Part shown: positions 1,031 to 58,449 of the stretch, piece after piece
Numbering within the stretch: the first letter of the stretch is position 1
Layout: each line of letters starts with the position of its first letter
Source: a virus
DNA: 64,000 nucleotides
Virus record (IMG/VR): IMGVR_UViG_3300037467_001050
Location: 1-64,000 of that record
Reading direction: 5' to 3' (one strand)
Program-made: the position numbers and the translations under genes
The notes under the pieces: generated by a model
Database searches by the model: none
What the model was told of the DNA's origin: nothing
The model's input: only the letters and a program-made list of their open reading frames with translations

Positions 1031-1219
1031 CGGAGAGACCTCAGGTGAGAGCGAACGGGCGCCGCCCGAGGGCCTTGCGACCCTCAGGTCAGGCGGTAGA
1101 CGGGGATGGCCACAGGCGTGGCTGATCGCGCCGGAAAGCGATCACGCCCTCCGGTCCATCTCGGCGGCCCGCTCATTTGCAGAATGGGCCGTCCTATGTC
1201 GTTTGCTTTCCTGCAAACG

Positions 1220-1621
1220 TCAAGCGGAAACTTCGACCGGCAGCAGTTCCAGGCGTGCGCCCCGTGGCGCCTTGCCCCACTCCACGACGACGCGGTTCTG
1301 GTACTTGTCGTCCTCGATCAGGCCGGCTTGTACAGCAAAATCCAAACAGGCCTTGATCCTGTTGTCGAGGTCCAGCTTGAACCGCTTCGCTTTGGTGATC
1401 GTGAGAATGACGTCGAACGGGCCGGTGATCTTCGGCCAGCGCTGGCCTGCCATTTGCTCTTTGAGCGCCTCGTCGGCTTTGGCCTTCCAGTTCTGGTAGC
1501 TTTTCGATAGGTAGGTCCAGGTGCGGCCGGTCGAACGCGCATGCCCGCGGCGCCAGATCCGGTTCGTCGACGTCGGCAACGGAAGATCAACCACAATGTG
1601 ATTTGCAGACTGCGAGTTCAT
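1220..1621 (-). CDS. rusA: RusA-like Holliday junction resolvase
   Basis: LPLPTSTN..W, DLDNRIKACLD and IEDDKY acidic motifs; ATG at 1621 chosen as start. Confidence 0.85.
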   Translation of the reverse strand: MNSQSANHIVVDLPLPTSTNRIWRRGHARSTGRTWTYLSKSYQNWKAKADEALKEQMAGQRWPKITGPFDVILTITKAKRFKLDLDNRIKACLDFAVQAGLIEDDKYQNRVVVEWGKAPRGARLELLPVEVSA

Positions 1622-2117
1622 TTGGCATGCTCCGTGGCATGCCAGAATGCAATCGACTGCAACATGGCACCAACGCACATGCACCGTCGTTCCAGTTTCT
1701 CTACATTCTCTTTAAAATAGAGTGGCTTACTGTCCCGAGCCCGGATTGTGGCACTTTCGTGGAAGCTGAAAAATGCCGGTTTTATTAGCAGTTTGTTCAT
1801 TTTTTTAGCGCTCTGGAGCTCGCACTGGAAGTCCGTGCATCACCCGAATTCAGTATCCGACCCTCTACGCACATAGACGCAAGCAAATCATTTGCAGAAT
1901 GTTGGCTTTTCCAGTTGCAAACCACATTGCGTCGCGTTAGGTGTGCGGCGTCGCCCATGCCATGGCATGTGCAATTTGCAGGGAACCTTTCTGCAAGTGT
2001 GGGCTTGTAGGATTGCAAGCGCAAGTGCAAAAGGCCCCTCGCGATGGGGAACCGCCGTCCATATGGACGGAGAGCAGCGGGTCGCGGGGCTAAGGGGACT
2101 TGGATTGGAGGATTGAG

Positions 2118-2867
2118 ATGAACATGGTGGTCGAGCAGCGCCAGACCGTCGTCGACGACGAGACCCATAAGAGGATCGCCCGGCAGGAGTTCATCTCGTG
2201 GGTTGACCACATCCTCGAACGCCGTCAGCAGGACGCGACGCATCTTGCTCTGGACAGCGATCTGTCCCCGTCCACGATCCTGCGGCTCCTGAACAACAAG
2301 AACCATACCTACCTGCCGTCGATGACGACGCTGCGGAAGATCGCGAACGGCTCCGGCTACCCGATCCCGCAGAAGCTCCTGCAGGCTTATGAGGTGCAGG
2401 TGACAGAGCCGGATGCCGCGCCACGGCCACGGCCGACCGCCAATGTGCGCGGCGGCCCTGCCGCTCAGCGGACCGTCGAAGTCGGCGCACCTCGGAAAGT
2501 CGCGGTTCGGCACGTTTCCACGCTCCCGAAGTCGCTCGCCCCGATCGTGCCGTCGGAGCAGAGGGTGGAGGTGCTCCCGATGCTGAAGGACGATACGACC
2601 GCGTTCGCGTTCAAGATGCCGGACGACAGCCTCGCGCCGGTCGTTCGGGGTGGCGCCATGGTGTTTGCTTCCAAGAGCCGTGACCCGGCTATCGACGACA
2701 TCGTGCTGATCGTCGACGAGAATGGCAGGGCCAAGGTTCGCGCGATCACGGGCGTCAATGAGGACGGCTACATCGTGTCGCCGGTGATGCGCCAGGACCA
2801 GACCGAGACCGTCGCCTTCGACGCGATCAAGGACTGGGGCATCATCGAGAACTTCAACCGCCGCTGA
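2118..2867 (+). CDS. CI-like repressor (XRE HTH plus S24-like C-terminal domain)
   Basis: HTH (LALDSDLSPSTILRLL...PSMTTLRKIA); C-terminal AFAFKMPDDSLAP..GG..V...P..DDIV; GGAGG RBS before ATG 2118; divergent from left arm. Confidence 0.75.
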   Translation: MNMVVEQRQTVVDDETHKRIARQEFISWVDHILERRQQDATHLALDSDLSPSTILRLLNNKNHTYLPSMTTLRKIANGSGYPIPQKLLQAYEVQVTEPDAAPRPRPTANVRGGPAAQRTVEVGAPRKVAVRHVSTLPKSLAPIVPSEQRVEVLPMLKDDTTAFAFKMPDDSLAPVVRGGAMVFASKSRDPAIDDIVLIVDENGRAKVRAITGVNEDGYIVSPVMRQDQTETVAFDAIKDWGIIENFNRR

Positions 2868-2947
2868 TCTCTCGTCCTGGCGTTAGCATAAATTCGCACG
2901 CCCGGACGCTTGCGCCAATGCAAACGACAGCGCAAACAACGCAAACG

Positions 2948-2976
2948 AAAAGGGCGCCCCGAGAGGCGCCCTTTTT
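2948..2976. terminator. Bidirectional intrinsic terminator
   Basis: AAAA-GGGCGCC-loop-GGCGCCC-TTTTT between convergent genes. Confidence 0.8.
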
Positions 2977-2995
2977 CGCGTGGTCCTGAGGAGGC

Positions 2996-3445: not shown

Positions 3446-3625
3446 GATCGTCCTCCACGGCAGCCAGCAATCAAAGCCGGTGTTTGCGAGTTAGGCCTAG
3501 GACGCCTAAACTGCAAGTAGAATTTCAGGCCTGTCTGGGACGGCTCGTTTGCAGTATCAGGACTGCATCGGTTTGCTGAACAGAGGTTCATGTCAGCATT
3601 CCTGCCACGCTTCTTGTGCGTCGGT

Positions 3626-3994
3626 TTATTTGCTGGATTGTTTCTCAAAAACCTCGAGAGAGGCGATCATGGCGTCAATGGCCCCGACGGATGCACCGAC
3701 AGCGTGGGTGGTATGCTGTTCGCGAATTGATCTGAGATGGTTCAGACGATCACGGAGCTTGGAGATCTCCTCGAGGTCGACTCGGGCCTGCCAGTCGGCC
3801 TTCTCGAGGCTCAGCTCGATCTTCTCGATCTCGTGCTCCAGCAAACTCTGAAGCTGAGCGACTTGATCCTCAAGCTCTCTGAGGTGCGGACCGATGGCAT
3901 GGCGCGTCAGCGCTGCCTTCTCTCTGATTGTCGGAAGGAACCTCATCATCGCCACCGTCAGTGGCTTCACGAGGGTCGTCGGGGAGTGTGGCAT
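3626..3994 (-). CDS. Hypothetical coiled-coil protein (start uncertain)
   Basis: Leu/Glu heptad-rich ORF. Confidence 0.5.
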   Translation of the reverse strand: MPHSPTTLVKPLTVAMMRFLPTIREKAALTRHAIGPHLRELEDQVAQLQSLLEHEIEKIELSLEKADWQARVDLEEISKLRDRLNHLRSIREQHTTHAVGASVGAIDAMIASLEVFEKQSSK

Positions 3995-4283
3995 CGGTTG
4001 GTTTGTTCTCCGAAGGTGGGTACTCGTTCGCGTCCGGTATGAGCCCTGTCCTGGCCCAATCCTCCCTCGTCGGCTGCCATGGAGACAGTCCGCGCTCGAT
4101 CGCGGCCAGGGCCAGGGCCTGTGTCCGCGTCAAGCCAACCTTGGCGTAATTCATGACTGAGTTCGGGTGGACACCAAGCCATTCGGCGATGTCATCGTAG
4201 GTCAGGTCGCGGCTGATCCGCCAAACCTGAAACTGCTTACCCGTCAGAAACTTATCGGCAGCGTTACGCTTCGGTGCAGGCAC
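3870..4283 (-). CDS. XRE-type HTH protein
   Basis: LTGKQFQVWRISRDLTYDDIAEWLGVHPNSVMNY HTH pattern. Confidence 0.7.
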   Translation of the reverse strand: MPAPKRNAADKFLTGKQFQVWRISRDLTYDDIAEWLGVHPNSVMNYAKVGLTRTQALALAAIERGLSPWQPTREDWARTGLIPDANEYPPSENKPTDATLPDDPREATDGGDDEVPSDNQREGSADAPCHRSAPQRA

Positions 4284-4950: not shown

Positions 4951-5153
4951 CTCAGAACCTCCGTTTGCATTCCTGCAAATGAGTGAACGCGCCGGATCAC
5001 TCCAGCGCGCCGTGGAACCGCTGGGCCACCTCGCGGGTGTCGTAGGGGCCGATCACGTCGTCGTAGGTGTCGGCGCCGGGTGTCGGCAGAACCAGATACC
5101 AGCCGGTCAGCTCCGGGTTCGTGTCCTGGTGCTGGACGATCCGCCAGTCGGTC

Positions 5154-6517: not shown

Positions 6518-7020
6518 GGGTTCCTTTCGGATTGGATGTGGAACGGGCGGCCGTAGCCGCCCGCGTTCAGTGCTTGGTGGGCGGCACCTTCTCCGCCCGG
6601 GCGTGGCGCCCGTATCGCCACTGCGCGGCGACGGTCTTGACCGCCACGGCGCGGGTCACGGCCTCGGCCACTTTCTGCCAAGCCGGTCCGGGGTTCTTCA
6701 GGGCGTGAACGTCATACAGTTGCTCCTCTGACAGGGTAGCCTCTCCGTTTGAATTCGTGCAAGCGAGTTTGCATTGCACGGCGATCGGACCAGCATGTGT
6801 GGCCCGTGCGCTTCACCCCGGCCGTTGGCCGGATCTCGAAATCAGGCAGTCAGCTCTGCGAGAGCCGTGACCGGATCGCTCTGCATGAGCGCGGCTTGCT
6901 GCTCTGGCGTCATCATCGCCCAGGCAGCGCGCAGAAGGTCCTGCAGGTCACCGACCTCGTGGTCTGGTTCGCTGTCCTCGCCGTGCTGCTGCGCGACCAA
7001 GATGTACTCCTCGATGTCCT

Positions 7021-7856: not shown

Positions 7857-8620
7857 GCCGCCTCCATTTGCATTCCTGCAAGTATGCGGGCGTAGTGCTT
7901 CGCGCCCGAGCCGTGGATGGTCTTGACGATGTCGGCCTTGGCCGGCTTGCGGTTGCCGCCGCAGAGCATGCAGCGGTTGCACTGGATCGTCTTGTCGAGC
8001 TCGTGAGGGCAGACGCCCTCATCCTTCAGGGCCGGACCGTCTTTGGATCGCGTCCGAAAGGTGCGGAAGCCCAAACGCTTCGCCTCCTCTCTTTCCTCGG
8101 GGCTGTCGACGGAGGCCATGCAGAAGTCAGCGAGCTGCGGGTACTCGCGCCAGCTGTGGGTGTAGCCGTTGATCTCGCGGACCTGATCGAGAGCCTTCTC
8201 GAGCACCTCGAACGGCACGGACGCCGGGTCGCCGTAGGCGCCGAGCCGCACCCGCATGCCCTTGAGGATCTTGCGGGCCTGACCCAGCGGCACCGTCTGG
8301 TAGCGGCCGTTCTTGTAGGTCTCGTAGACCATCCGCGGGCCATGCATCAGCGTGACGTAGCATCCGCGCTCGACGTTCTCGCGCTTGCCCGTCTCCTCGT
8401 TGACGACGATCTTCCCTCGAGCCTTACACATGGCGCAGATCGACACGTCCTCGCCGGACTGCACGGCCACCATCGGGTGGATGTCTGCGCGTAGGAAGTA
8501 GACCTGCACCATCGGACCAGTCTTCGAGTTCCGGCCGCCGTCCTTGAGCCCAGTCGCGATCATGACGATGGGCTTCCCGTCAATCACTGACGGGCCCTCG
8601 TAGAGGATGATGCCGTTCAT
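7853..8620 (-). CDS. Conserved Cys-rich phage protein (possible metal/Fe-S enzyme)
   Basis: NSKTGPMVQ, SICAMC, GCYV, RLGAYGDPA, C-terminal C..CNRCMLC motifs. Confidence 0.7.
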   Translation of the reverse strand: MNGIILYEGPSVIDGKPIVMIATGLKDGGRNSKTGPMVQVYFLRADIHPMVAVQSGEDVSICAMCKARGKIVVNEETGKRENVERGCYVTLMHGPRMVYETYKNGRYQTVPLGQARKILKGMRVRLGAYGDPASVPFEVLEKALDQVREINGYTHSWREYPQLADFCMASVDSPEEREEAKRLGFRTFRTRSKDGPALKDEGVCPHELDKTIQCNRCMLCGGNRKPAKADIVKTIHGSGAKHYARILAGMQMEAA

Positions 8621-9571: not shown

Positions 9572-9633
9572 TGCTCTCACTTTCCTTGAATTCCTGCAAG
9601 CGAGGGGGCGGCCGAAGCCGCCCCGCCGGTGGA

Positions 9634-12128: not shown

Positions 12129-12207
12129 TCACTCGTTCCTTTGAATTCATGCAAGCGAGTGGGCAGCACGAAGCCGCATGCCCGGGCGCATGGGTGGTGT
12201 CGGTAGG

Positions 12208-12375: not shown

Positions 12376-12396
12376 TTGCATTCCTGCAAGTGGCGA

Positions 12397-13157: not shown

Positions 13158-15359
13158 TCAGGCGGCGAGCAGGCGCGGCTGGGGAGCTTCGAGGACGATC
13201 GGCTCGCGGCCGTCGACCGTCAGCGTCAGCTTTGCGTCCGTCTCGACGAAGGCCACGCCGCGCCCTTCCGTGCCGGGGATCGGCGTCGTCGGCCGGTGGA
13301 CCATGCGGGTCGGCCCGGACCATTCCACCTTGCGGCAGAACACGACATCGTTCGCCCAGTCGGTGAAGGCCGAGCGCACCGCGATCACCGGGTCGTTTCG
13401 GCCCTCGCGGCGGTTGCGCATCAGCACCGGCGCCGCGATGTGGATCACGAACGCCCCGAGGATCGGATTGAACATCGGAGCGATCGGCCGGGCTTCGGCC
13501 GTGAGCACCTCCAGGGGCTGGCCGTCGAGCCAGCGGGTCAGCGGCCCGTCGGTCTCGATCCAGTTCTGGATGTCGGTGCCCTCGATCTTGAGGAACTCGT
13601 GGTGGACGAACCGGGAAGGTCCGTCCCACGCGAGCTCGCGGGCCATCAGCGTCTCGTCGATCTTGCGCAGCCGGCGCACGGCGACCACGGGGTCGTGCCG
13701 GCCCTGTGCCTTGTTGGCCAGGATCGTGGGCACGTCGACGTGGATCAGGAACTCGCCGCGCACCGCCGAGACGGGGGTGGCGGTTTCCGGGGCCGGCACG
13801 ATGTCGACGACCCGGTTGTTGTCGATCCACCAAACGGCGCCATTCTTGCCCTCATAGTCGATGGCGATGCGACGGCGGTCGAAGCCGTAGGTCTCCGTCA
13901 CCTTGAAGGTGCCGGCCGGGTGATCGATGCCGGCCTCGAGCTTCACCCAGTCACCCACCTTGGCGCGCTTCCAGGCCGGTTCCTCGACGACCGCGGGAAC
14001 GGGCGCCGGCTCACCGGCCTTCCGGACGATCGCCTTGATATGGTTGTTTTGGATCCACATCCGGCTCCCGTCCTTGCTGTCCTTCACCCGTAGGCGACTG
14101 CCATTGCCGCCTCTGGTCGAGACGACCTTGTGCTCTCCATTCGCGACCCAGCTGCTTTCCTCGACGCGGACGATGTCCCCGATCTCGGCCAGCTCGTAGG
14201 GCTCCTTCTTCGGCTCGACAGCGACGATGTGGTCGTTGCGGATCCAGCGCTTGAGGCCGTCCAGAGCGCTCACGACGCGGACCTGCCTGTGGCCTCGGCT
14301 CCGGTCGACCTCGACGACCTCATGGTCGCCGTCCTCGACCAAGGTGCTGCCATTCACGGTGACGCGACCGCCGACCTCCGCCAGCTCGTAGGGCTTCTTC
14401 TCGGTGACCGTGACCGCGGTCGAGGCGGTCCCACCGAAAGGCTTGCCATCTCGCTCGATGATCGCCTTGACGGTCTTGTTCTGGACCCAGCCGTGACCCT
14501 TCAGGCGAACGCCGATCCGATCCGGTCCGCCGGTGAGGGCGTGATCGGTGCGACCGACCTCATACGTTCCATCGTCGACGATACTAGAGCCCTCGATGCG
14601 GACTTTGTCTCCCGCGAGCACCTGCTCCCAGACCGGGCGGGTGTCGGCGGTGGTGTAGGGCCTGCCGTCCCGCTCGACGATCGCCGTCACGGCCTTGTTG
14701 TAGATCCAGATGGTCTCGCCATCTCTGTTCTCGACGAGGATAGCTGCGAGATCACCATCCCTGGCGGTGTCGTTGCCCTCGTCGACCTGGATGACCTTGT
14801 AGGTCCCATCCGAGATGTCCGGATCGTCCTCGACCTGAACGCGATCGCCGTCCTTGACCAGCTGCCACAACTGGCGATCAGCCTCATTCTCGTAGGGCTT
14901 GCCGTCGCGCTCGAGGATCGCCAGCAGCTTGTGCTCAGGGATCCAGCCGGCAGCGAGTCCGTCCTGCGAGACCAGGAAACGCAGGCCGTGTATCGGCTGA
15001 TCGAAGGTGTCGATGTCGGCTACGGTGTACTTGCCGGCCGCACGGGCGATGGACAACCCGGACATCTCCTTGGTCAGCTCCTTGGAGAGCGTCCGGGCGA
15101 CCTCGACTATGTCACCGCGACGCACATCGCGCCAGTTCACGGCGGCGTAGGGCTTGCCGTCGCGCTCAACGATGGCCTCGACGGAGTCGTTCCTGAGGTA
15201 AATGCCGCCAATCGCGGTGGTGTAGATGCCGACTGCGTCCGCGCCGCGCCTCAGATCGCTGTCGGTGTAGGCCACCTCGTAGGTGCCGGCGGGCACGTCG
15301 TCATATGCCTTCACCTTCACCTTGTCGCCAGCAAGAACCTGTTCCCAAAGAGGCTTCAT
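13158..15359 (-). CDS. Repeat protein: 7 SH3/KOW-like repeats plus 2 copies of a C-terminal domain
   Basis: Repeated W/Y..V..GD.V.V...G.Y.V...WI.N..V.AIVERDGKPY units; GAAAGG RBS before ATG 15359. Confidence 0.75.
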   Translation of the reverse strand: MKPLWEQVLAGDKVKVKAYDDVPAGTYEVAYTDSDLRRGADAVGIYTTAIGGIYLRNDSVEAIVERDGKPYAAVNWRDVRRGDIVEVARTLSKELTKEMSGLSIARAAGKYTVADIDTFDQPIHGLRFLVSQDGLAAGWIPEHKLLAILERDGKPYENEADRQLWQLVKDGDRVQVEDDPDISDGTYKVIQVDEGNDTARDGDLAAILVENRDGETIWIYNKAVTAIVERDGRPYTTADTRPVWEQVLAGDKVRIEGSSIVDDGTYEVGRTDHALTGGPDRIGVRLKGHGWVQNKTVKAIIERDGKPFGGTASTAVTVTEKKPYELAEVGGRVTVNGSTLVEDGDHEVVEVDRSRGHRQVRVVSALDGLKRWIRNDHIVAVEPKKEPYELAEIGDIVRVEESSWVANGEHKVVSTRGGNGSRLRVKDSKDGSRMWIQNNHIKAIVRKAGEPAPVPAVVEEPAWKRAKVGDWVKLEAGIDHPAGTFKVTETYGFDRRRIAIDYEGKNGAVWWIDNNRVVDIVPAPETATPVSAVRGEFLIHVDVPTILANKAQGRHDPVVAVRRLRKIDETLMARELAWDGPSRFVHHEFLKIEGTDIQNWIETDGPLTRWLDGQPLEVLTAEARPIAPMFNPILGAFVIHIAAPVLMRNRREGRNDPVIAVRSAFTDWANDVVFCRKVEWSGPTRMVHRPTTPIPGTEGRGVAFVETDAKLTLTVDGREPIVLEAPQPRLLAA

Positions 15360-15439
15360 CGTCGTCACCTTTCTGCGTCGGATCTGGTTTGCAATCTTTC
15401 CCACCATTGGCATTCCTGCAAACGGTAGGCAAGCGGAAT

Positions 15440-15811
15440 TCAAGCGGCGAGGGGCCGCTCGTGTCGGTAGCGCTGGGGCTTCGGCGCCTCGTACCAGAAG
15501 GCCACGCGGGGCGGCTCCTCGAAGGCGACCAACACCAGGGGATCGGCGTCGCGGTAGCGGCGGGCGGCCTTCTTCAGGGTCTCGCCGCTCTCGCGGGCCG
15601 TGTCGATGATGAGCGCCCGGCCGAGGTGGACCGGAGGCTCGGCGCCGAACGGGATGAACGGCACAGCCAGGATGTGTGAAGCGTAGACGGCCGCCACCGC
15701 GCCGGATCGCCCGGGCCCGGTGACGAAGCCGACCGCGTCGGTGTCAGCCGCCGCTAGGACGGCGCGCAGCCGCTCCTGAAACTCAGGCTCGGAGACGATG
15801 CGGATTGTCAT
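15440..15811 (-). CDS. Phosphoribosyltransferase-like protein
   Basis: GPGRSGAVAA and ALIIDTARESGET (PRPP-binding-loop-like). Confidence 0.7.
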   Translation of the reverse strand: MTIRIVSEPEFQERLRAVLAAADTDAVGFVTGPGRSGAVAAVYASHILAVPFIPFGAEPPVHLGRALIIDTARESGETLKKAARRYRDADPLVLVAFEEPPRVAFWYEAPKPQRYRHERPLAA

Positions 15812-16001: not shown

Positions 16002-16226
16002 TCATGGTGGCTCCTTCTCGTCGAGGTCGTTGCCGTTGAACCGGGCCAGAGGCTGGTGCTCGTCGCCATCAGCGAAGATCACGATGTCGCCGGGCCCGAT
16101 GTCGCGCTGGGCTCGGATGTCCCAGCGGCGATGAAAGAACCGCGGCCCGCCGAAGATCCGGTAGGCGTTCCAGTACCGATCGTCCCGGAAACCGACGTAG
16201 TGGACGCACCGCGGTTCGTCGGACAT
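16002..16226 (-). CDS. Conserved small phage protein
   Basis: VHYVGFRDDRYWNA.RIFGGP.F.HR.WD.RA pattern; overlapping start/stop. Confidence 0.6.
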   Translation of the reverse strand: MSDEPRCVHYVGFRDDRYWNAYRIFGGPRFFHRRWDIRAQRDIGPGDIVIFADGDEHQPLARFNGNDLDEKEPP

Positions 16227-16227
16227 C

Positions 16228-16566
16228 TCAGTTGCGCTCGATGATGCCGGCGACTTCGGTCCCGTCCTTGCCGAACATGGTCCACATGGTGGAGCAGCCG
16301 ACCTTCGTGTCGCGCTTGAGCACGTTCACGTAGAGCTGGCCCTTCAACATCTGCCCGCTGTTGGCCGCGATCGTCTTGACGTTGACGCCCATGCCGTCGA
16401 GCGCGGCCATGACCATCATCATGTTGGGCTGCATGCCCGGGCAGAAGTCCTTCACGAACGCCGCGACGGCGACGAGCTTGACGGCGTTGTCCATCATGTC
16501 GTCGGCCCGGGCGGGCGCGGCGATGAGGGCGGCGAAGGCGGTGGCGGTGAGAATGATCTTCTTCAT
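16228..16566 (-). CDS. Secreted two-cysteine protein
   Basis: MKKIILTATAFAALIAAPARA signal; paralog of 6107-6517. Confidence 0.7.
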   Translation of the reverse strand: MKKIILTATAFAALIAAPARADDMMDNAVKLVAVAAFVKDFCPGMQPNMMMVMAALDGMGVNVKTIAANSGQMLKGQLYVNVLKRDTKVGCSTMWTMFGKDGTEVAGIIERN

Positions 16567-16612
16567 GTCAGGTCTCCGTTTGCATTCCTGCAAGTGAATG
16601 GGCCCGGCTCCA

Positions 16613-17080
16613 CTATTCGGAGGCCAGGATCTCCTTGATCGACGTGTTGGCGACGAAGCCGAAGTAATCGTCCTCCGACTCCACGTAGATGCGCTTGTCG
16701 ATGTCGCCGTTGTCGACATCCCCGACGGTGTACTCACCATCCGGTGCATCCTCGTCTCCCTCGACACGCACACGATCGCCGGGCTTGACGATCAGCACGC
16801 GGGTCGCATCCGGCTCGCGGAGCGCCTTCTGGCGCCACGCCTCCGGCAGGGCTTCACCGTCGACGGTCAGCGCGTCTTCGGAGATGCTCACCCGGCCGTC
16901 CGAGGCCTCGGAGACGGCCACCCGGACGTCGACCAGCTTGATCAGCCGGTCTTCGTCCTGGCAGCCGCCGACGAGCAGCTCGCGGACCTTGCCGAAGTTC
17001 GGGTGATCCGAGGCGAGGGACCAAGGCTGGCCCCGCGCCACGAAGATCACGGACGAGTTGGTGGCGTCGTAGGCGATCAT
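16613..17080 (-). CDS. rIIB N-terminal-like region fused to one SH3-like repeat
   Basis: Directly downstream of rIIA; SDHPNFGKVRELL motif; C-terminus matches repeats of 13158-15359. Confidence 0.6.
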   Translation of the reverse strand: MIAYDATNSSVIFVARGQPWSLASDHPNFGKVRELLVGGCQDEDRLIKLVDVRVAVSEASDGRVSISEDALTVDGEALPEAWRQKALREPDATRVLIVKPGDRVRVEGDEDAPDGEYTVGDVDNGDIDKRIYVESEDDYFGFVANTSIKEILASE

Positions 17081-21396: not shown

Positions 21397-21463
21397 CCGT
21401 TTGCACTCCTTTGTTGGCATTCCTGCAAATGAGGGCGCGCCGTGAAGCGCGCCCCCGGATGGC

Positions 21464-22213: not shown

Positions 22214-22567
22214 GGTGTGCTCGCTGTCAGGCGCGCGGCATCGATCGCCTCACCCCAAAGAGGTGAGCCGGGCGCCATGGTTTGGGTTCGGGGTGAGTCG
22301 TTTGCTTGCGACGTTTGCAATTTGCCTTCCTGCAAACGGCCATGCAAGCGAAAAATCAAACGAGCGGTGTGGCCGGCACCATGAAGGCGCCGATCTTCTC
22401 GGCCTCGTCGAGCTGCGCGTCGGCAGCGGTCCTGAACGCGGTGACCCGATCGGCTTGCTCACCGAGGGCCAGCTCGACCCAGGTGGCGGCGTCCGTCAGG
22501 TCGTCGATGTTGCCGTCGCGGTCCTCGAAGTCCACGACGAGGATGACACGCTTCATGATGCGCTCCT

Positions 22568-23071
22568 TCACCAGTCGTAGACCGGCAGGGCCTCGATGGT
22601 GTCGGCCGCCTGATCGAGCATGATCCAAGTGCAGCCGTTCTCCTCGGCGAACCGGCGGATCTTCTGGAGGTCAGGCGTCCAGGCCCATCGCTCTTCCTCG
22701 TCGCCGTTCTCGAAGGGGATGATGGGGATGATCCAGCCGTGCTCGCCCTTTTTGTAGTGGAGCGGCGCCCTTCCGGACCTCTTGCCGTCGAGCCGCAGGC
22801 TGGTGCGGTACTCGATGTGCCCGGTGCTCAGCACAAGCATCCGCGGGGTTTCGAGGCTGGCCACCGGATCAGGCTGTCCGGTCACGAGGACCATGCCGCC
22901 CTGGCCCTGGCTGTTGCCGATCCGGAAGCCTGCGGCGACCTCGAACTCGTGACGCTCCAGACCGTCAGCCATCGCCGTGTAGGAGAGGCTACCCTCGAAG
23001 CTGTCGTCGGCCGCGACCGCTTCTCGCATGCGGTCGATCAGGGCCAGCAGCTCGTCCTTGCTCTTCTTCAT
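22568..23071 (-). CDS. Hypothetical protein
   Basis: AGAAGG-type RBS region; operon context. Confidence 0.55.
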   Translation of the reverse strand: MKKSKDELLALIDRMREAVAADDSFEGSLSYTAMADGLERHEFEVAAGFRIGNSQGQGGMVLVTGQPDPVASLETPRMLVLSTGHIEYRTSLRLDGKRSGRAPLHYKKGEHGWIIPIIPFENGDEEERWAWTPDLQKIRRFAEENGCTWIMLDQAADTIEALPVYDW

Positions 23072-24209: not shown

Positions 24210-24249
24210 GGTGGTCCTCGTTTGCTTTCCTGCAAGTGAATGGTCGAGC

Positions 24250-24483: not shown

Positions 24484-24598
24484 AGGCGCACTCCGTTTGC
24501 ATTTTCGTCATGCCGCCTCGCGACGGCCATGCCAAGTGGAAATTGCAGGCCGCGTGATTACGTTTGCATTCTTGCAGCCCGGGGGAGAATGCAAACGG

Positions 24599-27707: not shown

Positions 27708-27793
27708 CCTCCTCTGGATCGCGCAACGGCGACTTGCATTCCTGCAAGCCCTCGGCGACACCCACCCCCGAAGGGATGGGTGGAACGAAGGGC

Positions 27794-34599: not shown

Positions 34600-35330
34600 C
34601 TTAAACCCCAGACGTGTCTGGGTAAATACACATAGGTTAGTTTTCGCCAGAAAAATGCATTTCCAGTCGAGAAAAATGCAAATGGCTCTAGAATGCAAAT
34701 AAACAGGCTTGGAAAGCCCGCGCGAATTTTAGGCTAGGGTAGATCGGGAAAACGGTTCGATCCCGCTCATAGGCCAAATCTCGCAATTCTAGGCCCATTC
34801 CAGCCCTGACCCCTGGCCCCTTACGCGCGCAACGCGCGTGCCTTTCCTGGCCCTGGCCCTGGCCCTGGCAAAGCAGGGGAGAAAACGACGTGGCAAAAAT
34901 CGCCCTCGATGCACCGCAACAAATTGAGCAATTTCAACAGTTTAGCGCGCGCAAATGTGCGCTCCAGCTGCGGAAAAAAACGGCTCGAAAATGGCAGCTC
35001 AAGAGCGGTGCAACATAGCTTGTTGCAATGCAATAATTACACGCTTGTGAGAATGTTCGGCAAAGGTTGTGCCAAAGCACAGCTTCGAAGCTTAAAAATC
35101 ATGTCAAGTCAAAAATAATATGTTGAGAGCATTTCCTCGCAAAGAAATGTTGCGAGATCACATGTTCCCTAGAAGTCAACCCACCTAGGTTAGTTTCAAA
35201 GATTTAGTTTGTAAGTGTGATTTTTTTATTACAGTACCCCCCGGTGCATGGGGTAGCACCCATACAAAAATCACCCCTAAAAGACCCCTTTTTCCCACCC
35301 CCGTCAAGGACGACATCATGATCTACTCTT
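34600..35330. other. AT-rich non-coding junction between divergent arms
   Basis: No credible ORF; A/T tracts; (CCTGGC)4 at 34846-34869; TGCA half-sites. Confidence 0.7.
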
Positions 35331-35885: not shown

Positions 35886-36782
35886 CCGCGCCCCGCAAGA
35901 TGATCGTCGCCTCCAGCCGGAGGTGGGCTCAGAACATCCGAGACAGCCTCGAGCTCGATCCGTCCGAGTGGGATGCCTTCGGCATAGGCGAGGGCCTGCC
36001 GGCCCGTCCCTACGACAAGATCCTGGTCTTCGCCGACCAGCTGGGCATCCGCCGCACGGAGACCGAGGTCGAGCATCAGCGCGCCTACATCAACATCAAC
36101 CTGCGCAACCGGCTCGCCGATGGCGGTGTCCTGAAGCTCCTCTGACACGTTTGCACTGCTTCGCTTGACTGACATTTGCAGGAATGCAAATGAGATCGAC
36201 GGAGAATGCAAATGAGCAAGCCTCAACAGTTCCGCGAGTGCCTGTTGACCCAGGACGGCCACCGGGCAACCGCCTGGATCCGCGCCGATCTCGCCGTCAT
36301 CGGAAACTCGGTGACCATCCCGGAAGTGTCCGGACGGTGGACGATCTTCGATGTCGGCCGCACCAAGGATGGCCTGCAGCTGCGCGCGATCGCCGCCGAT
36401 CAGCCGCCGCTGCCGCGCCCGCGCATCGAGCTGGCAAAGCCCCGCGATCCCTTCCCGGGCTTCGAGCCGCCCGCGCCCGATCCGATCGTCCCGCATCGCT
36501 CGCACTGGGTGCCGGCATGAGCATCACCTTCGAGGACGAGCTCACCAAGCTCATCCGGCGCATGGCGCCCGGCGAGACGCTCCTCTGGTCCCAGCCGCTC
36601 GGTAGGGCTCTCGAGGCCGTCGCCTACTCCGCTCAGCTCGACCGCCACAATGGCCGGTCGGAGGCCCGCTACGAGAAGATCTTCGAGCGCGTGAAGGCGA
36701 TCCTGTCGTCGAACGCCACGAAGTTCGAGCTCGGGCTGGCCGTCGGCATCGCTCTAGCACTCGCAACCGAAGGATCCATTCA

Positions 36783-43322: not shown

Positions 43323-43353
43323 CTTGCAGGAAAGCAAATAGAGAAGCAAGAAA

Positions 43354-44892: not shown

Positions 44893-44916
44893 TTGGCAGG
44901 AATGCAAAGGTAGAAG

Positions 44917-45489: not shown

Positions 45490-45581
45490 TGGAGCGTAGC
45501 TCAGTTGGTTAGAGCGCTGGCTTACCCCCGGTCTAACGGGGACGCCGGAGGCCACAGGTTCGAGCCCTGTCGCACCATCCA
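45490..45581 (+). ncRNA. tRNA-Asp-like RNA with 22-nt expanded anticodon loop
   Basis: Acceptor TGGAGCG/CGCACCA+T+CCA; D arm GCTC/GAGC; anticodon stem CTGGC/GCCGG; T arm ACAGG-TTCGAGC-CCTGT. Confidence 0.75.
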
Positions 45582-45663
45582 TCGGGAGCTGATCTGAAAG
45601 CCGCGATCAACAGGCTGGCGGCAGCTGGCCCTCCCGGCCAATTTCGCCCGAAATTGGGCACGG

Positions 45664-45740
45664 TAGGGTGTAGCTCAGCGGTCTAGAGCGCGGGTCTCCA
45701 AAACCCGGTGTCGCAGGTTCAAATCCTGCCTCCCTAGCCA
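45664..45740 (+). tRNA. trnW: tRNA-Trp(CCA)
   Basis: Full cloverleaf; anticodon arm CGGGT-CTCCAAA-ACCCG; encoded 3' CCA. Confidence 0.9.
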
Positions 45741-45779
45741 ATAGTTAGCCCGCAAGGGTGTTTTTGGAGAGCGAAAAGC

Positions 45780-46349
45780 TTGACCACGTACAGCATTTTC
45801 GATCACGGCTCTTGGGAGTCCTACATCAAGCCCGATAGCTTCGGGTCCATCCGACAGATCGGAACCGGGATCGACTGGTACGACTACCGGCAGAATGCCG
45901 CGAACTTCCACGGTGGCGTTCTTGTCACCCTGATGCAGGATTATGCGAACCCGGACGGCTTCCTGTCGGCGGCGCCAAACACCGATGTGTCGATGGTGTC
46001 CCCCTTCGGACGACTGATCGAGATCTTGGACTACGCTGGCTCCACACCTTCCGGTCCCAACAGCGATCTGGCCAACGCTCAGGTCGTCATCAGCGGCAAT
46101 ACCGCGACGTTCACGAAGCCTTACACCCTGACCTCTCGCACGGTTGTGAACCGCATGACCGACGCTGAGATGTACGCCGCCTACATGGCCGACCAGCTGC
46201 AGCCGCTGCGGTCTCGCCTCACAGGGACCGCCGTGCTGCTGACGAGCTTCACGGCACAGAGCGGGACCTCACAGTTCAGCCTGATCAAGGCGGCCTTCGC
46301 CAACCTGTTCGGTGCAGCTCGCGCCGAGACGCTGACAGCGGCCCCGTAG
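45780..46349 (+). CDS. Tail-fibre-assembly-like protein inserted in the tRNA island
   Basis: TTG start with GGAG RBS; DHGSW..Y.P N-terminus and helical C-terminus resemble alphaproteobacterial phage fibre chaperones. Confidence 0.45.
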   Translation: MTTYSIFDHGSWESYIKPDSFGSIRQIGTGIDWYDYRQNAANFHGGVLVTLMQDYANPDGFLSAAPNTDVSMVSPFGRLIEILDYAGSTPSGPNSDLANAQVVISGNTATFTKPYTLTSRTVVNRMTDAEMYAAYMADQLQPLRSRLTGTAVLLTSFTAQSGTSQFSLIKAAFANLFGAARAETLTAAP

Positions 46350-46447
46350 TCGCCAGACGAGAACGAGATCGGCCGGCCCGCGTGGCCGGCCCACAATCAT
46401 GCTCTACCCCAGAGCGCATTCCCTACGGGCACCAGCCCTGAAAAACG

Positions 46448-46473
46448 TTGACGCCCCAGGTTAGGCCTACCAC
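46448..46473 (+). promoter_or_regulatory. Second candidate sigma70 promoter
   Basis: TTGACG followed by CCTACCAC at -10-like spacing, upstream of the structured RNA block. Confidence 0.4.
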
Positions 46474-46645
46474 CCCCTTCGAGGGGGAACTCGAGCCCTC
46501 GTATGCGGCTCGAGTGGCGGTACTATGGTCGGATTAAGTAGGCGGGGAATTGCGAGGCAAGGAAGGTGGCGAGAGCCCCGGGTTCCGGTGCGAAAGCACG
46601 ACTGGACCGGCCAGACCGACGGGTCGCAAATGGGTGCCAATTCGA
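46473..46645 (+). ncRNA. Candidate structured ncRNA
   Basis: 9-bp stem ACTCGAGCC/GGCTCGAGT; GNRA hairpins GGC-GAGA-GCC and GTGC-GAAA-GCAC closed by TTGCGA/TCGCAA. Confidence 0.45.
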
Positions 46646-46648
46646 GAT

Positions 46649-46745
46649 CGACGACGTGGTGGCTGAGAGGCTGAAGGCACCACAGAAATGGGGCACGGCC
46701 TGCGGGTCGTCGGGGGTTCAAATCCCTCCCACGTCGTCGTTTCCA
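46649..46745 (+). ncRNA. tRNA-Ser-like RNA lacking an anticodon
   Basis: Ser-type D loop, 6-bp variable arm, T arm, G73; anticodon arm 14 nt (CCACA-GAAA-TGGGG); terminal stem extends to 11 bp. Confidence 0.7.
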
Positions 46746-46747
46746 TG

Positions 46748-46824
46748 CCCGGTGTAGCTCAGTCTGGTAGAGCATGTGGTTCATGCCCACGGAGCCGCTG
46801 GTTCAAATCCAGCCACCGGCACCA
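46748..46824 (+). tRNA. tRNA(CAT), Met/fMet/Ile2 class
   Basis: Cloverleaf; TGTGG-TTCATGC-CCACG; C1:C72 mismatch; A73 and CCA. Confidence 0.85.
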
Positions 46825-46941
46825 ACTTTCGAGGCGTGGACCCCTCGGGACCTCTCCGGTCCTAAGGCCTCGATCCCACCACGGTCGTGCTCGAACCGTG
46901 GTCCCTGCGCATGCGGGATACGATGAAGGGAAGGGGTGTCC

Positions 46942-47051
46942 GGGAGGGCATGAGGGCGGAGAGCCCCATCGGGCGCGTCGAGCTGAGCGTGCTCAGCTTC
47001 ACCGGCCCGATGCCTTTTGGCTTGGCGGTGAAAATCCAGCCCCTCCCACCA
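46942..47051 (+). ncRNA. 110-nt tRNA-shaped RNA with long central helix
   Basis: GGGAGGG/CCCTCCC+A+CCA; GGGC/GCCC hairpin; CATCGGGC/GCCCGATG and AGCTGAG/CTCAGCT stems; TGAAAAT T-loop-like. Confidence 0.6.
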
Positions 47052-47056
47052 GTTTC

Positions 47057-47140
47057 GAGTGAGATGCCCGGGTGGACGGGCGGGAGGCTGTAACCCTCCT
47101 GGCTATGCCGTGGTGGGTTCGAGCCCTGCCTCACTCACCA
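47057..47140 (+). tRNA. trnY: tRNA-Tyr(GTA)
   Basis: GAGTGAG/CTCACTC+A+CCA; GGAGG-CTGTAAC-CCTCC; long variable arm. Confidence 0.9.
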
Positions 47141-52322: not shown

Positions 52323-53162
52323 ATGGCCGGGTTCATCACGTTGCCGCAAGCGATCATGTCGGTTGTGGGCGGGATCCCGGTCCAGCCCGCAGGCCCGATG
52401 ACGATCATCGAGAAGCTGCGCGCCGCCAAGAGCATGCTGCCCGGCGACATCAGCGGCATTCTCGCCAAGGTCCTCCAAGAGGGGCCGCAGGCGCTGCTGC
52501 AGAACCCGATCGCCAGCATCACGGGCCAGCTGCAGGGCCAGCTCGGCGGACTGGTCAGCCAGATCCAAGGGCTCTCCGGCATGGGCCTCGGCGGCCTGCT
52601 CTCGGCGATCTCGGGAACCGGCGGCCTCCAGTCCGCGCTCGGTAACCTGACAGGCGTGGCCAACTCCCTATCCGGTCTTGCCGGATCCGGGCCGTTCTCG
52701 TTGATCGATGCGATCGGCCACGCGAACATCGTCGGCATGCTCGGCTCGGCCATGCCGGCCAATCTGAGCATCGCCAACGCGATGGGCCCGGTCCTGATGG
52801 GCTCCGGCCTCAACTCCATGCTGGGTCAGGTCCAGGGCATCGCCTCGGCGATCACCGCCGGCACCATCGACCCCGTCGCCGCCGTCGCGCAGGTGACGGG
52901 CATGACCAGCACCATCAACGGCGTACTCGATGCCAGCGCCTACGCCTTCAGCACCGTCCAGAACGCGGTGGTCGGCATCGCCCAGACCGCCGGCCTGATC
53001 TCGCTGGTCGCGTCCGGCCCGGCCGATTTCGGTCAGATCGCCAACATGCTGATCCGCGACGAGATGAAGCCGGCCATCCAGGCCGCGATGGACGAGCAGA
53101 TCCGGCCCGTGGACACGCCCATCGACCTGGGTCTCGGCGACGACGGCGACTGGGGTGGCTGA
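52323..53162 (+). CDS. Gly/Ala-rich hypothetical baseplate-module protein
   Basis: 279 aa between gpV and gpW. Confidence 0.65.
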   Translation: MAGFITLPQAIMSVVGGIPVQPAGPMTIIEKLRAAKSMLPGDISGILAKVLQEGPQALLQNPIASITGQLQGQLGGLVSQIQGLSGMGLGGLLSAISGTGGLQSALGNLTGVANSLSGLAGSGPFSLIDAIGHANIVGMLGSAMPANLSIANAMGPVLMGSGLNSMLGQVQGIASAITAGTIDPVAAVAQVTGMTSTINGVLDASAYAFSTVQNAVVGIAQTAGLISLVASGPADFGQIANMLIRDEMKPAIQAAMDEQIRPVDTPIDLGLGDDGDWGG

Positions 53163-53863: not shown

Positions 53864-53896
53864 CGCTTGCGGACACGCAAACGCCAAGGGTTTGCA

Positions 53897-54838: not shown

Positions 54839-54841
54839 GCC

Positions 54842-56050: not shown

Positions 56051-56127
56051 TCCATCCGTTCACCGCCAACCACCGACCCGGGGATCCAACCCCGGGCGGT
56101 CGCGCATGCGTGCGCCTAGAGGAACCC

Positions 56128-58413
56128 ATGAAGAAGGTCATTTTCCGGGATTACCAGGAGGAGGTCGCCGACGACCATAACAACCTCCAGGACTACATCT
56201 ACGAGCAGCTCGACGACGTCACGTCGGATACCGTCTCCACCGGCCGCCGGTACGCTGGCATGCTGGTCCAGAAGACGGGTCAGGTCGAGGTGACGGTTGG
56301 CGTCGGCCGCATCTACGATGGCGGTCTCGTCTACAAGCGCCGCACCTCGTTCACGCAGTCGATGTCTCAGTACACGACCGCCGCGGCCAAGCGCATCGTC
56401 GCCATCACGGCCTACGGCAACGAGAATTTCACGGACGAGAACGAGCGGGACTTCCTCGTCGACGTCGACAACAACACCGTCGAGCCGCAGCAGGTCTCGA
56501 TGTCCACGTCCCGCGACGTGCAGCTGGTCTTCACGGCCGGTGCCGAAGCGGCAGATCCTCAGCCCCCGCCCGTACCGGCAACTCACGTTCTGATCGCCTA
56601 CGTCGTGATGGACACGACCCAGGTCATCTCGGTCACGATGCTGGTCGACAACCAGGTGGTCAGCACCGACAGCCTCGCCACCCGCGCCAAGGCCCTCGAA
56701 ACCTTCAAAAGCCAAATCGAGCCGCGCGTCGGTTCACTTGGCGCCGACCTCGCCGACCTCGCCAACCAGCTGCGCAGCTTCGCGAGCCCCGAGACGCTCG
56801 CCCGCGTCTACCTCGACGTTGCACGCCTGAAGTCGGCCCTGAAGTTCCCGACCAACTCGTCTGGCTACGGCTCCTTCCCCTACCTCGACCTGTCCTACTC
56901 GGACACGACCAACGCGGCGCAGCTCGGCTACGACGCCCGCGTCGAAGAGGGTATTCGCTTCCCGGTTGCCAACGCCGACAAGAAGGCGATCAACATCTTC
57001 GCGGCGAACGACCCGAACGCCAAGATCACAAGCGGCATCCTGCTGCCGGCATACACCGAGGAGCTGAAGCTCCAGACCGGCGACTTCTACTCCGAGTTGG
57101 GCATCGCCCAGTACGGCTTCCAGACGCTCACGACCAAGACCGGCTACATGAGCCGCTCGCGCATCCGCTACGGCGGGTCGCAGACGGTCTGCACCAACGG
57201 CACATGGTGGGGCACCACCGGCCAGCCGATGCCGGAAGCTGGTCTCTACGAGCCAGAAAGCGTCCCGATCCAGTTCCAGGACGACGTCTCGAAATACTAC
57301 CATGGCGTCAACGCCGGTCTTGGCGAGGTGATCCGCACCGACACCTACTGGTTCGACACCTGGCAGGAGCCGTTCAACTACACGGTTACGGTCGACAACA
57401 CGATCACCGGTGCTCAGGTCGCTCAGACCCTGCTGGTCTCGAACGACATGTGGGCGACGAAACTCGGCTTCTACATCACCGCCAAGGGCGCGAACGAAGA
57501 CATCAAGCTGATGGTCACCGAGGTGACCAATGGCCAGCCAGACCTCTCCAAGGTCATGATGAACGCGACGTATCCGCAGGCCTCGATCGTGGCTGGCTGG
57601 AACTACGTCCCGATCAAGCCGACCTTCTTCCAGAAGGGCAAGCGTCTCGCGATCGTCCTCGTCTCGAACGCCAACCACAAGATCGGCATGACGAGCGGTC
57701 AGTCCTACGTCGACGGCACGTTCTTCTACTCGACCGACAGCATCTACTACCAGGGCGACCTGACCAAGGACATGATGCTGCAGGTGTTCGGCGCGAAGTT
57801 CGCCGCATCGCAGGTCACAATCCCGTTCGCGGCGCTCAACCTCGACGGCGGCATCCGAGACCTCGACATCATCGCCGAGATGTGGGTGCCCTCGAGCACC
57901 CAGCTGATCTTCGAGATCCGCCCGAATGGCTCGGGCGAGTGGCTCGCGATCACCGATAACGACGTCACGAACCTCGCCGGCGCCCCGCCGCTCTGCGAGT
58001 TCCGCGGCCGGTTCATCGGCACCAAGGACATGATGCCCGCGCTCAACCTGAACGCGGCCACCGTCAAGATGTCCCGGCCGAAGACGGCCTTCAAGCACGT
58101 CTCGCTGGTCGAGGTTGTGCCGAGTACGTCGTCGATCACCGTCAAGGTCCTGTTGGAGCGCTTCAACGACCTGCCGCACGACTACGATCTGTCGCTCTAC
58201 ATCACGGCCGGACCCTCCGGCACGCTGCCCCGCATGGAGACGGCGGACTCTGTGGTCACGAAGCTCATCGACGCCAACGCCGGCCGCTACGAGCGGACCT
58301 TCGTCTTCAACCTGGATGCTCCCGCAACGGGACTGCGCTTCGTGCAGACCGGCCAGACGAACTCGCCGACCTCGACCTACCACGTCGCGGAGCTCGACTA
58401 CTACGTCGTCTGA
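56128..58413 (+). CDS. Large baseplate/tail-fibre-proximal protein
   Basis: 761 aa after gpI; beta-rich; GAGGAA RBS. Confidence 0.65.
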   Translation: MKKVIFRDYQEEVADDHNNLQDYIYEQLDDVTSDTVSTGRRYAGMLVQKTGQVEVTVGVGRIYDGGLVYKRRTSFTQSMSQYTTAAAKRIVAITAYGNENFTDENERDFLVDVDNNTVEPQQVSMSTSRDVQLVFTAGAEAADPQPPPVPATHVLIAYVVMDTTQVISVTMLVDNQVVSTDSLATRAKALETFKSQIEPRVGSLGADLADLANQLRSFASPETLARVYLDVARLKSALKFPTNSSGYGSFPYLDLSYSDTTNAAQLGYDARVEEGIRFPVANADKKAINIFAANDPNAKITSGILLPAYTEELKLQTGDFYSELGIAQYGFQTLTTKTGYMSRSRIRYGGSQTVCTNGTWWGTTGQPMPEAGLYEPESVPIQFQDDVSKYYHGVNAGLGEVIRTDTYWFDTWQEPFNYTVTVDNTITGAQVAQTLLVSNDMWATKLGFYITAKGANEDIKLMVTEVTNGQPDLSKVMMNATYPQASIVAGWNYVPIKPTFFQKGKRLAIVLVSNANHKIGMTSGQSYVDGTFFYSTDSIYYQGDLTKDMMLQVFGAKFAASQVTIPFAALNLDGGIRDLDIIAEMWVPSSTQLIFEIRPNGSGEWLAITDNDVTNLAGAPPLCEFRGRFIGTKDMMPALNLNAATVKMSRPKTAFKHVSLVEVVPSTSSITVKVLLERFNDLPHDYDLSLYITAGPSGTLPRMETADSVVTKLIDANAGRYERTFVFNLDAPATGLRFVQTGQTNSPTSTYHVAELDYYVV

Positions 58414-58449
58414 TCCGACGCTTGCAGGAATGCAAACGACAGATCCTGA

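Follow-up and report, generated by a model that had tools for sequence, protein, structure and literature searches.

What is the short repeated word that occupies the gene junctions of a large phage genome, always pointing the way the adjoining genes are read, and what reads it? The word is found in a 64,000-nucleotide stretch of DNA (the window) that makes up the first 64 kb of IMG/VR record IMGVR_UViG_3300037467_001050, which is 122,894 bp long and is rated 100% complete by CheckV. A first-pass annotation of the window had described an oriented 14-bp element in many copies, and had proposed that the CI-like protein encoded at 2118 to 2867 binds it in a system of the kind known from mycobacteriophages L5 and Bxb1. 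We find that the motif is a DNA-level, phage-specific and family-wide site array, which occupies operator positions at sigma70-type promoters and also gene junctions that have no promoter. In our judgment there is about an even chance that this array consists of the operators and stoperator-like sites of the phage's own candidate repressor, a CI/LexA-type protein.

Crude gene calling based on GC3 (G+C content at third codon positions) divides the genome into a minus-strand arm from 1 to 35 kb, a plus-strand arm from 35 to 83 kb that contains the virion genes (terminase, portal, capsid, sheath and tube), and a minus-strand arm from 83 kb to the end. The window contains 30 matches to TTGCAGGAATGCAA at ≤3 mismatches, compared with 2.68 ± 1.84 (maximum, 7) in shuffled sequences. 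At ≤2 mismatches there are 22 copies, of which 16 are on the minus strand (1203 to 30770), 5 are on the plus strand in the plus arm, and 1 is on the plus strand at 2005, upstream of the repressor gene. The earlier reading of the minus-strand blocks and of the copy at 2005 is thus confirmed, but of the 6 copies that it assigned to the plus arm, only 5 are good copies within the window. In the whole genome, all 31 copies found at ≤1 mismatch are co-oriented with the gene arm in which they are located (31/31): the 9 forward copies are all in the plus arm (36 to 80 kb), and the 22 reverse copies are all in the minus blocks (1 to 31 kb and 91 to 121 kb). The reversed control pattern has no matches on either strand of the whole genome (0/0), and looser thresholds give ~40 copies of the motif across 122.9 kb. 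The anti-oriented matches in the window (1639, 28305, 50937 and 51777) all have 3 mismatches, are mostly intragenic, and are about as numerous as expected by chance.

To describe the sites we used a set of 105 from three genomes, those of this phage and of two complete relatives, BDU-MI-1 and IMG/VR phage G001 (108.9 kb). Only 5 of the 105 sites are in a coding-like open frame, compared with ~70% of random positions. Sites follow the preceding stop codon at a median distance of 22 nt, 1, 4 and 8 nt being preferred, and precede the next start codon at a median distance of 17 nt (range, 0 to 186 nt; ≤20 nt at 54 of 98 sites). A typical junction consists of a stop codon, a few nucleotides, the motif, ac, GGAG, ~7 nt and ATG, and at 6 sites the ATG directly abuts the motif. 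These distances agree with the first-pass description of copies in small gene junctions, near stops and shortly before starts, and the scan of the full genome and its relatives upholds count, orientation and intergenic bias alike. The copies in the window and the genes and region most relevant to their control are as follows.

1203 to 1216, minus strand: motif with one mismatch, between the RusA stop codon and the replication-initiator gene; preceded by cgcTTGACgt, with TTGAC starting 7 nt upstream, a register in which the motif fills the 17-bp promoter spacer
1685 to 2117, no strand assigned: divergent control region between RusA (minus) and the CI-like gene (plus), crowded with TTGCA/TGCAA half-sites and including a degenerate copy at 2005 to 2018 (plus)
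2118 to 2867, plus strand: CI/LexA-type repressor gene, antisense to its neighbors; best candidate for the binder
2910 to 2923, plus strand: weak copy with three mismatches, 42 nt past the CI stop codon and followed by a terminator at 2948 to 2975
3870 to 4283, minus strand: gene for a small helix-turn-helix (HTH) protein, second candidate for the binder (perhaps Cro-like)
4965 to 4978, minus strand: perfect motif; stop codon, 18 nt, motif, acGGAGG, ATG
6749 to 6762, minus strand: motif, TTGCACGAATTCAA variant
7868 to 7881, minus strand: perfect motif, ATG 11 nt downstream
9586 to 9599, minus strand: motif, GAATTC variant, directly past a GC hairpin and ahead of the methyltransferase gene
12141 to 12154, minus strand: motif, with a gene for a 692-amino-acid protein 12 nt downstream
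12376 to 12389, minus strand: perfect motif, abutting ATG
15408 to 15421, minus strand: motif, with the -35-like cgcTTGCCT upstream
16580 to 16593, minus strand: perfect motif, ATG 13 nt downstream
21415 to 21428, minus strand: motif, past a GC hairpin
22322 to 22335, minus strand: motif, with cgcTTGCAT upstream and several GCAAAC half-sites downstream
24222 to 24235, minus strand: motif, ATG 12 nt downstream
24564 to 24577, minus strand: motif with two mismatches, inverted half-site GTTTGCATT upstream
27734 to 27747, minus strand: perfect motif, past a strong hairpin
28772 to 28785, minus strand: motif, at the 5' end of the ProQ/FinO-L12 gene
30770 to 30783, minus strand: motif with one mismatch
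36176 to 36189, plus strand: perfect motif, overlapping the spacer and -10 region that follow TTGACT, with GTTTGCAC upstream and GAATGCAAATG downstream
43324 to 43337, plus strand: motif, in the gap from the terminase stop codon to the portal gene; no copy at the BDU-MI-1 counterpart of this junction
44894 to 44907, plus strand: motif, 1 nt past the portal stop codon
49610 to 49623, plus strand: degenerate motif with two mismatches, between the capsid-gene stop codon and an intrinsic terminator; G001 is arranged alike
58422 to 58435, plus strand: perfect motif, 8 nt past the stop codon of a gene for a 767-amino-acid protein

The logo of the 105 sites gives the consensus C(-3) R(-2) Y(-1) TTGC NN GAAT K CAA R(14) Y(15) G(16), that is, an element of ~20 bp (-3 to +16) that can be written CRY-TTGC-NNGAAT-KCAA-RYG and that has outlying half-sites of the form ATGCAAA. 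The 14-bp element of the first-pass annotation is therefore real, but the conserved stretch is longer. The flanks CRY and RYG mirror each other, while the center, NNGAAT, is asymmetric. In BDU-MI-1 the motif takes the form TTGCTTGAATGCAA; G001 has TTGC[ATG][TC]GAAT[GT]CAA in 29 copies at ≤1 mismatch, the orientation of which flips with the gene arms; and the distant relative G006 (portal 46% identical) has the variant cgtTTGCATTAATTCGAAcg. Bradyrhizobium prophages, too, have variants of the motif. We had considered that the stronger half-site is always the downstream one, but this was withdrawn, as the arrangement in G006 is the opposite. Two perfect palindromic 18-mers in G001, at 23017 to 23034 and 52657 to 52674 (TAGCTTGAATTCAAGCTA and TCGCTTGAATTCAAGCGA), match the motif on both strands. 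G006 (L096 to L100) has, besides its oriented TTGCATTAATTCGAA motif, three inverted pairs of the form GTTTGCAT-N17-28-ATGCAAAC at 20927/20963, 37678/37704 and 79959/79987, which may be the primary operators of that lineage.

Which direction the polarity follows can be seen at the repressor locus of the relatives, where the repressor and a RuvC-like gene directly upstream of it in the same orientation (geneX) form a locally inverted operon. With respect to the repressor strand in the CI loci of 28 relatives, 138 copies are opposite and 31 are on the same strand, the latter being mostly the promoter copy before geneX-CI. Since the inverted operon has a conserved, co-oriented copy in front of it, polarity tracks local transcription and not genome arm or replication direction. 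The RuvC-like protein (GIDPSLRNWG...) is encoded at 9140 to 9755 of L031 and in 25 other CI loci, and in BDU-MI-1 at 16004 to 16639 (minus strand). The phage studied here does not have this gene and carries at the equivalent place, on the opposite strand, the RusA resolvase gene (1220 to 1684).

Polarity with transcription, and a location in transcribed junctions beside ribosome-binding sites, would also be expected of a signal in the mRNA. According to this explanation, the motif is an RNA word, linear or only weakly folded, that is bound by a phage protein (e.g., the ProQ/FinO-L12 protein) or cut by a nuclease, and that controls the processing, stability or translation of the downstream gene. 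The phage does encode a ProQ/FinO-domain protein, RtcB and a Thg1-like enzyme, and a 5-bp stem capped by a GNRA loop can be drawn for UUGCA-GGAA-UGCAA, an alternative that the first-pass annotation had also raised. However, paired stem positions among the 105 sites are no more frequent than expected for independent columns (positions -2/15, 60 versus 62.4; -1/14, 62 versus 61; 3/10, 78 versus 78.1; and 4/9, 59 versus 63). The change of G10 to T, which is found in 25 of the 105 sites and breaks the C3:G10 pair, is never compensated, and the loop of the relatives is not GNRA (TTGCTTGAATGCAA). The Rfam scan gives no match at motif sites, and its only matches in the window are tRNAs. Based on the lack of covariation, the uncompensated G-to-T changes and the loops of the relatives, an RNA or DNA hairpin with a GNRA loop is ruled out, and the earlier argument that the mismatches favor a DNA site is borne out by the same pairing counts. 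An mRNA-level element that does not depend on a hairpin also fits poorly: the inverted half-sites upstream of the motif (see below) make sense on double-stranded DNA only, conserved copies occupy promoter spacers, ahead of where transcription probably starts, and the host genomes do not use the word. In addition, BDU-MI-1 has the motif and no ProQ homologue, which rules out the ProQ/FinO protein as its reader. We therefore regard control at the mRNA level as distinctly unlikely.

A second possibility is that the motif belongs to a host regulon. The consensus of FixK2-type boxes, TTG(A/C)-N6-(T/G)CAA, is superficially like the motif. We searched four prophage-bearing host genomes of 4.3 to 8.8 Mb (Bradyrhizobium and a Methylobacteriaceae metagenome-assembled genome) for exact matches to TTGCNNGAATKCAA, and 51 of the 53 matches are on the prophage contig. 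The near-absence of the word from the host chromosomes outside the prophage contig rules out a regulon of the host, the CRP/FNR (FixK2-type) box included, and points to a phage-encoded partner.

A subset of the sites coincides with promoters. Within positions -32 to -5 relative to the motif there are 15 TTGAC boxes compared with 2.05 expected, in registers -7, -8, -11, -12, -15, -19, -22 and -26. In registers -7 and -8 the 14-mer exactly fills a 17-bp spacer, and a spacer-filling promoter of this kind is kept before orthologous genes in all three complete phages, as TTGACC-gc-motif-g-TAGGAC in this genome (111120), TTGACT-gt-motif-a-TAGGAA in BDU-MI-1 and TTGACC-at-motif-t-TAGTCA in G001. The TTGACT that the first-pass annotation noted before the copy at 36176 is present. 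In 22 of 28 IMG/VR loci (18 distinct sequences), a promoter of the form TTGACN-N16-18-TAT, running directly into TTGCAYGAATGCAA, precedes geneX and the repressor gene, and its -10 hexamer consists of the motif flank plus the first three bases of the motif. The 17-bp spacer of this geneX-CI promoter (L030 to L054, ~26 nt before the motif at ~9000) contains a short inverted repeat in which the sequence varies and the pairing is kept (CCCGCTTAGCGGG, CACCGTCGCGGGG and CCCCAAAACCGGG). A consensus promoter scan found no promoters, which is uninformative in DNA as GC-rich as this.

One possible explanation for the motif is that it is itself a promoter element, or an activator-dependent start, at which an unrecognized phage factor recruits host RNA polymerase to initiate at the conserved A at +14, giving short-leader or leaderless mRNAs for ~40 genes. 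Strict polarity is what such an element would show, as is the short distance to the start codon at more than half of the sites, where the motif is typically followed by 2 nt, GGAG, ~7 nt and ATG or, at 6 sites, directly by ATG. The copy number is also similar to that of the T4 middle or late promoter sets. About a quarter of the sites follow a GC hairpin, which would suit a cassette consisting of a terminator and a promoter. However, a strong hairpin is located upstream of 24% of the sites and of 24% of random genome windows, and the cassette is ruled out because the frequency equals the genome background. The conservation of T/G at -11/-10 is likewise ruled out as a promoter element, as this signal is due to stop codons at the preferred 8-nt distance and to a few TTGAC boxes.

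Known promoter classes do not match the logo either. As a sigma54 promoter (TGGCAC-N5-TTGCA), the motif has the wrong spacing between the GC elements, and the GG is not conserved; as an extended -10 element of sigma70 (TGC plus NNGAAT), it has a hexamer without the essential A(-11) at the second position; and as a -35 element of the extracytoplasmic function type (GGAAT/TGAAT), it has no conserved -10, with the start codon at the place where a -10 would be expected. Nor was a polymerase or sigma factor of the phage's own found. The profile scan of the genome's proteins gave no Sigma70_r2 match and only weak r4-like HTH matches, although very divergent factors could escape it. No DxDGD motif of an RNA polymerase was found, and the large proteins that might have been T7-like or YonO-like polymerases are other things: the 1,216-amino-acid protein is a class II ribonucleotide reductase, the 1,161-amino-acid protein is DnaE, and the 761-amino-acid open reading frame is a repeat protein. 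This last protein (13158 to 15443, minus strand) has ~8 repeats that end in ...AIVERDGKPY and has no Pfam or PHROG match. Further evidence against a promoter element is that TTGAC-type promoters are overlapped at many registers (-7 to -26), which is incompatible with a fixed element; that copies are found directly before terminators (49610, and 69426 in G001); that the same motif stands ahead of the repressor operon as well as of replication and structural genes; and that dyad symmetry and inverted half-sites are left unexplained. A promoter or activator-dependent start is thus, in our view, an unlikely identity for the motif.

The half-sites around the motif have a mirror-image layout. Within 55 nt downstream of the motif there are 27 direct ATGCAA half-sites, compared with 1.45 expected, and upstream there are 2. 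The inverted half-site, TTGCAT/TTTGCA, shows the reverse distribution, with 9 to 11 upstream of the motif (~1.5 to 1.9 expected) and 2 to 3 downstream. Together with the variable register of the -35 box, this layout suggests an oligomerizing DNA-binding repressor rather than a fixed promoter element or an RNA motif.

Gene content and relatives point to a phage in which such a repressor would have a role. The integrase-family protein encoded at 97291 to 98532 is the only one found in the genome. Among deposited phages, the only nucleotide-level relative is the Bradyrhizobium myophage BDU-MI-1 (121 kb), with 74.5% identity over the terminase gene; portal homologues are encoded on 95- to 160-kb contigs and within 8- to 9-Mb Bradyrhizobium chromosomes, and the closest homologues of both portal and repressor are from Methylobacterium. 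Because there is an integrase gene and relatives are integrated in Bradyrhizobium chromosomes, the family is temperate, and we conclude that this is a temperate phage of ~123 kb that belongs to alphaproteobacteria of the Methylobacterium/Bradyrhizobium type. A literature search for the motif string and for BDU-MI-1 returned nothing relevant.

The most probable reader is the product of 2118 to 2867. It contains a Cro/C1-type HTH and matches Pfam HTH_26 and the PHROG category "transcriptional repressor," and its AlphaFold model (predicted local distance difference test score [pLDDT], 85) matches phage 186 CI best and also matches lambda CI and LexA, with an HTH domain joined to an S24-like fold. 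Only 63 homologues (E below 1e-5) are found among 5.8 billion proteins, and they are encoded on the same contigs as the portal homologues. The motif is present in 28 of 28 IMG/VR loci that encode the repressor, and the repressor is present in 11 of 11 near-complete relatives (≥95 kb) with a portal that is ≥51% identical, with a diverged copy in G006. In 25 sequences with 31 to 56% overall identity, the recognition helix, L-[AS]-PST-[IV]-LR-[LIM], is essentially invariant, which agrees with the invariance of the TTGC/GCAA half-sites. At the positions of the Ser/Lys catalytic dyad that serves RecA-stimulated self-cleavage in repressors of this type, this phage and BDU-MI-1 have DDS-L and AK-VR; G001 has Ala in place of the Ser, a position at which the aligned sequences differ. 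The CI-like protein proposed in the first pass is therefore a good candidate, having a CI/LexA fold, being specific to the family and co-occurring with the motif, but there is a second candidate. The small HTH protein (3870 to 4283) is kept ~1.2 kb beyond the 3' end of CI in 25 of 28 loci, and it could be a Cro-like competitor or could bind instead of, or alongside, CI. Downstream of the CI gene, a perfect bidirectional terminator, AAAAGGGCGCC-TCTC-GGCGCCCTTTT (2948 to 2975), separates its 3' end from the converging lytic operon; a motif copy similar to the one at 2910 is found behind the CI gene of G006.

Based on these results, the motif would be the DNA site of a sequence-specific regulator made by the phage, most probably the CI/LexA-type protein, which may share it with the small Cro-like HTH protein. 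A minority of the copies would act as classical operators, since they fill the spacer between -35 and -10 or cover the -10 and the transcription start. Most copies, in promoter-less junctions inside operons, would act as polar roadblocks or as a repressor reservoir that silences the 123-kb prophage, as stoperators do in mycobacteriophages. Which protein binds, that its binding represses, and that elongation stops at the promoter-less copies are points that we infer. A bolder form of this proposal is that a dimeric repressor of the lambda/LexA type silences whole prophages of 110 to 125 kb through ~40 polar, imperfect palindromes, acting mostly on elongating polymerase inside operons. This would be an independent invention of stoperators outside the Actinobacteria, on a classical CI scaffold, with the imperfection of the palindrome setting the polarity; we offer this form tentatively, as possible but on balance doubtful.

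Several observations weigh against assigning the array to the CI/LexA-type repressor. The binder was picked by association only, and the very lack of variation in the recognition helix means that there is no covariation between protein and site to read. A symmetric dimer alone leaves the strict polarity unaccounted for, and the site of G006 has diverged in one half only (TTGCAT-TA-ATTCGAA), as would be expected of a bipartite or heteromeric reader more readily than of a simple homodimer. In about half of the copies a start codon follows within 0 to 20 nt, and often 2 nt separate the motif from the Shine-Dalgarno sequence, a placement that would suit a transcription start or an mRNA-level signal as well. 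No good copy is found in the large divergent region between the arms (34.7 to 35.3 kb), a place at which early promoters could be anticipated. Finally, conservation of position among relatives, which the first-pass annotation had treated as a touchstone, is partial: odds ratios for the comparisons are 2.8, 6.3 and 8.0 (p = 0.34, 0.019 and 0.007), and the terminase-portal copy is absent from BDU-MI-1.

The DNA-level, phage-specific and dyad-symmetric character of the motif applies equally if its reader is a phage protein with another main job, such as a cooperative reservoir or looping network by which repression at a small number of promoters is strengthened (186 CI and its flanking sites being an example), a Cro-like lytic regulator, or a nucleoid-organizing or replication-linked factor. 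The CI protein of phage 186, to which the candidate is structurally closest, assembles into multimeric wheels that engage flanking sites at a distance, and a second conserved HTH protein is encoded beside the candidate. However, looping, reservoir and nucleoid roles require neither strict polarity nor intergenic placement, and even in the inverted geneX-CI operon the polarity goes with local transcription, not with replication. We consider a different main job to be rather unlikely, and return to the reading as operators and stoperator-like sites for comparison with known systems.

The closest parallel is the repressor-stoperator system of the Cluster A mycobacteriophages (L5 gp71, Bxb1 gp69 and TipsytheTRex; PMC9283540, PMC6550527). 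In both cases >20 copies of one short site (here, 31 at ≤1 mismatch) are spread over a temperate phage genome, sites are found at promoters, as operators, and in short intergenic gaps, and site orientation strictly follows transcription. The earlier comparison with L5 and Bxb1 holds in these respects, but not for the site or the protein. While the Cluster A site is an asymmetric 13-mer read by a monomer, the site here is a largely dyad-symmetric 14- to 20-mer in which only the center or one half is asymmetric, and while gp71-type repressors are monomers with an HTH and a "stoperator domain," the candidate here matches 186 and lambda CI and LexA, although no search aimed at gp71 homologues was made. 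In addition, the host here is an alphaproteobacterium, the phage is a 123-kb myophage, and the block of elongation is a proposed one.

With lambda and 186 CI and with LexA, the present system shares the predicted fold, dyad half-sites 10 bp apart, clustered half-sites beside the repressor gene and operators over the promoter core. Those repressors use only a few operators, located at two or three promoters, whereas the array here has ~40 polar copies that are mostly in promoter-less junctions, and the position of the catalytic serine in the S24-like domain varies within the family (Ala in G001). Phage P1 is a large temperate myophage of Proteobacteria in which a single repressor, C1, acts on many operons by way of asymmetric operators, more than a dozen in number and dispersed. 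The P1 operators are associated with promoters and are not known from intra-operon junctions, and C1 and its 17-bp site are unrelated to the protein and site described here. Another repeated intergenic element in a large (~130 kb) temperate phage is SPBRE (SPbeta repeated element) of Bacillus phage SPbeta, which was found in silico, in promoter regions of ~ten genes, and was later shown by chromatin affinity purification sequencing (ChAP-seq) to be the site of the master repressor MrpR/YopR (PMC10516654). In contrast with the candidate here, MrpR has a tyrosine-recombinase fold and the host is a Firmicute, and the motif sequences are unrelated. In Cluster K mycobacteriophages, start-associated sequences (SAS) include the ribosome-binding site and are 3 to 8 bp from the start codon (PMC3203893). 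They resemble the present motif in being oriented repeats just upstream of many start codons, but here the Shine-Dalgarno sequence is separate from the motif and the distance to the start is much more variable (0 to 186 nt).

If the motif is indeed read by the CI/LexA-type protein, large temperate phages of Proteobacteria would have reached a stoperator-type solution with an ordinary repressor of this type. To our knowledge, genome-wide arrays of repressor sites have been demonstrated experimentally only for the Cluster A mycobacteriophages and, in promoter-bound form, for SPbeta. The array would then be a tractable case for understanding how a nearly symmetric dimer site acts in a polar fashion on RNA polymerase, and repressor and operator would provide an orthogonal pair for alphaproteobacterial genetics. 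With the simple signature CGY-TTGC-N3-AAT-K-C-R-AA, this family of ~120-kb prophages could then be found and delimited in the genomes of Bradyrhizobium and Methylobacterium, symbionts of agricultural relevance.

The gene content of the phage includes rIIA, thymidylate synthase and a primase-helicase in addition to the replication initiator, RusA, the DNA methyltransferase, the ProQ/FinO-L12 fusion, DnaE, the class II ribonucleotide reductase, RtcB and the Thg1-like enzyme already mentioned; the integrase is of the tyrosine type. The fusion protein (27794 to 28804, minus strand) joins a ProQ/FinO domain to a domain like the C-terminal domain of ribosomal protein L7/L12 (Pfam E values of 2e-23 and 9e-9); it has a homologue in G001 and none in BDU-MI-1. 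Since the motif copy at 28772 is in the annotated first codons, the true start of this gene is probably downstream of that position. Where the two gene arms diverge (34700 to 35320), there is a 600-bp non-coding stretch of lower GC content, without a good motif copy, that may be an origin or an early-promoter region. The virion arm also contains a tRNA island at 45490 to 47100 (plus strand), with three tRNA matches in Rfam.

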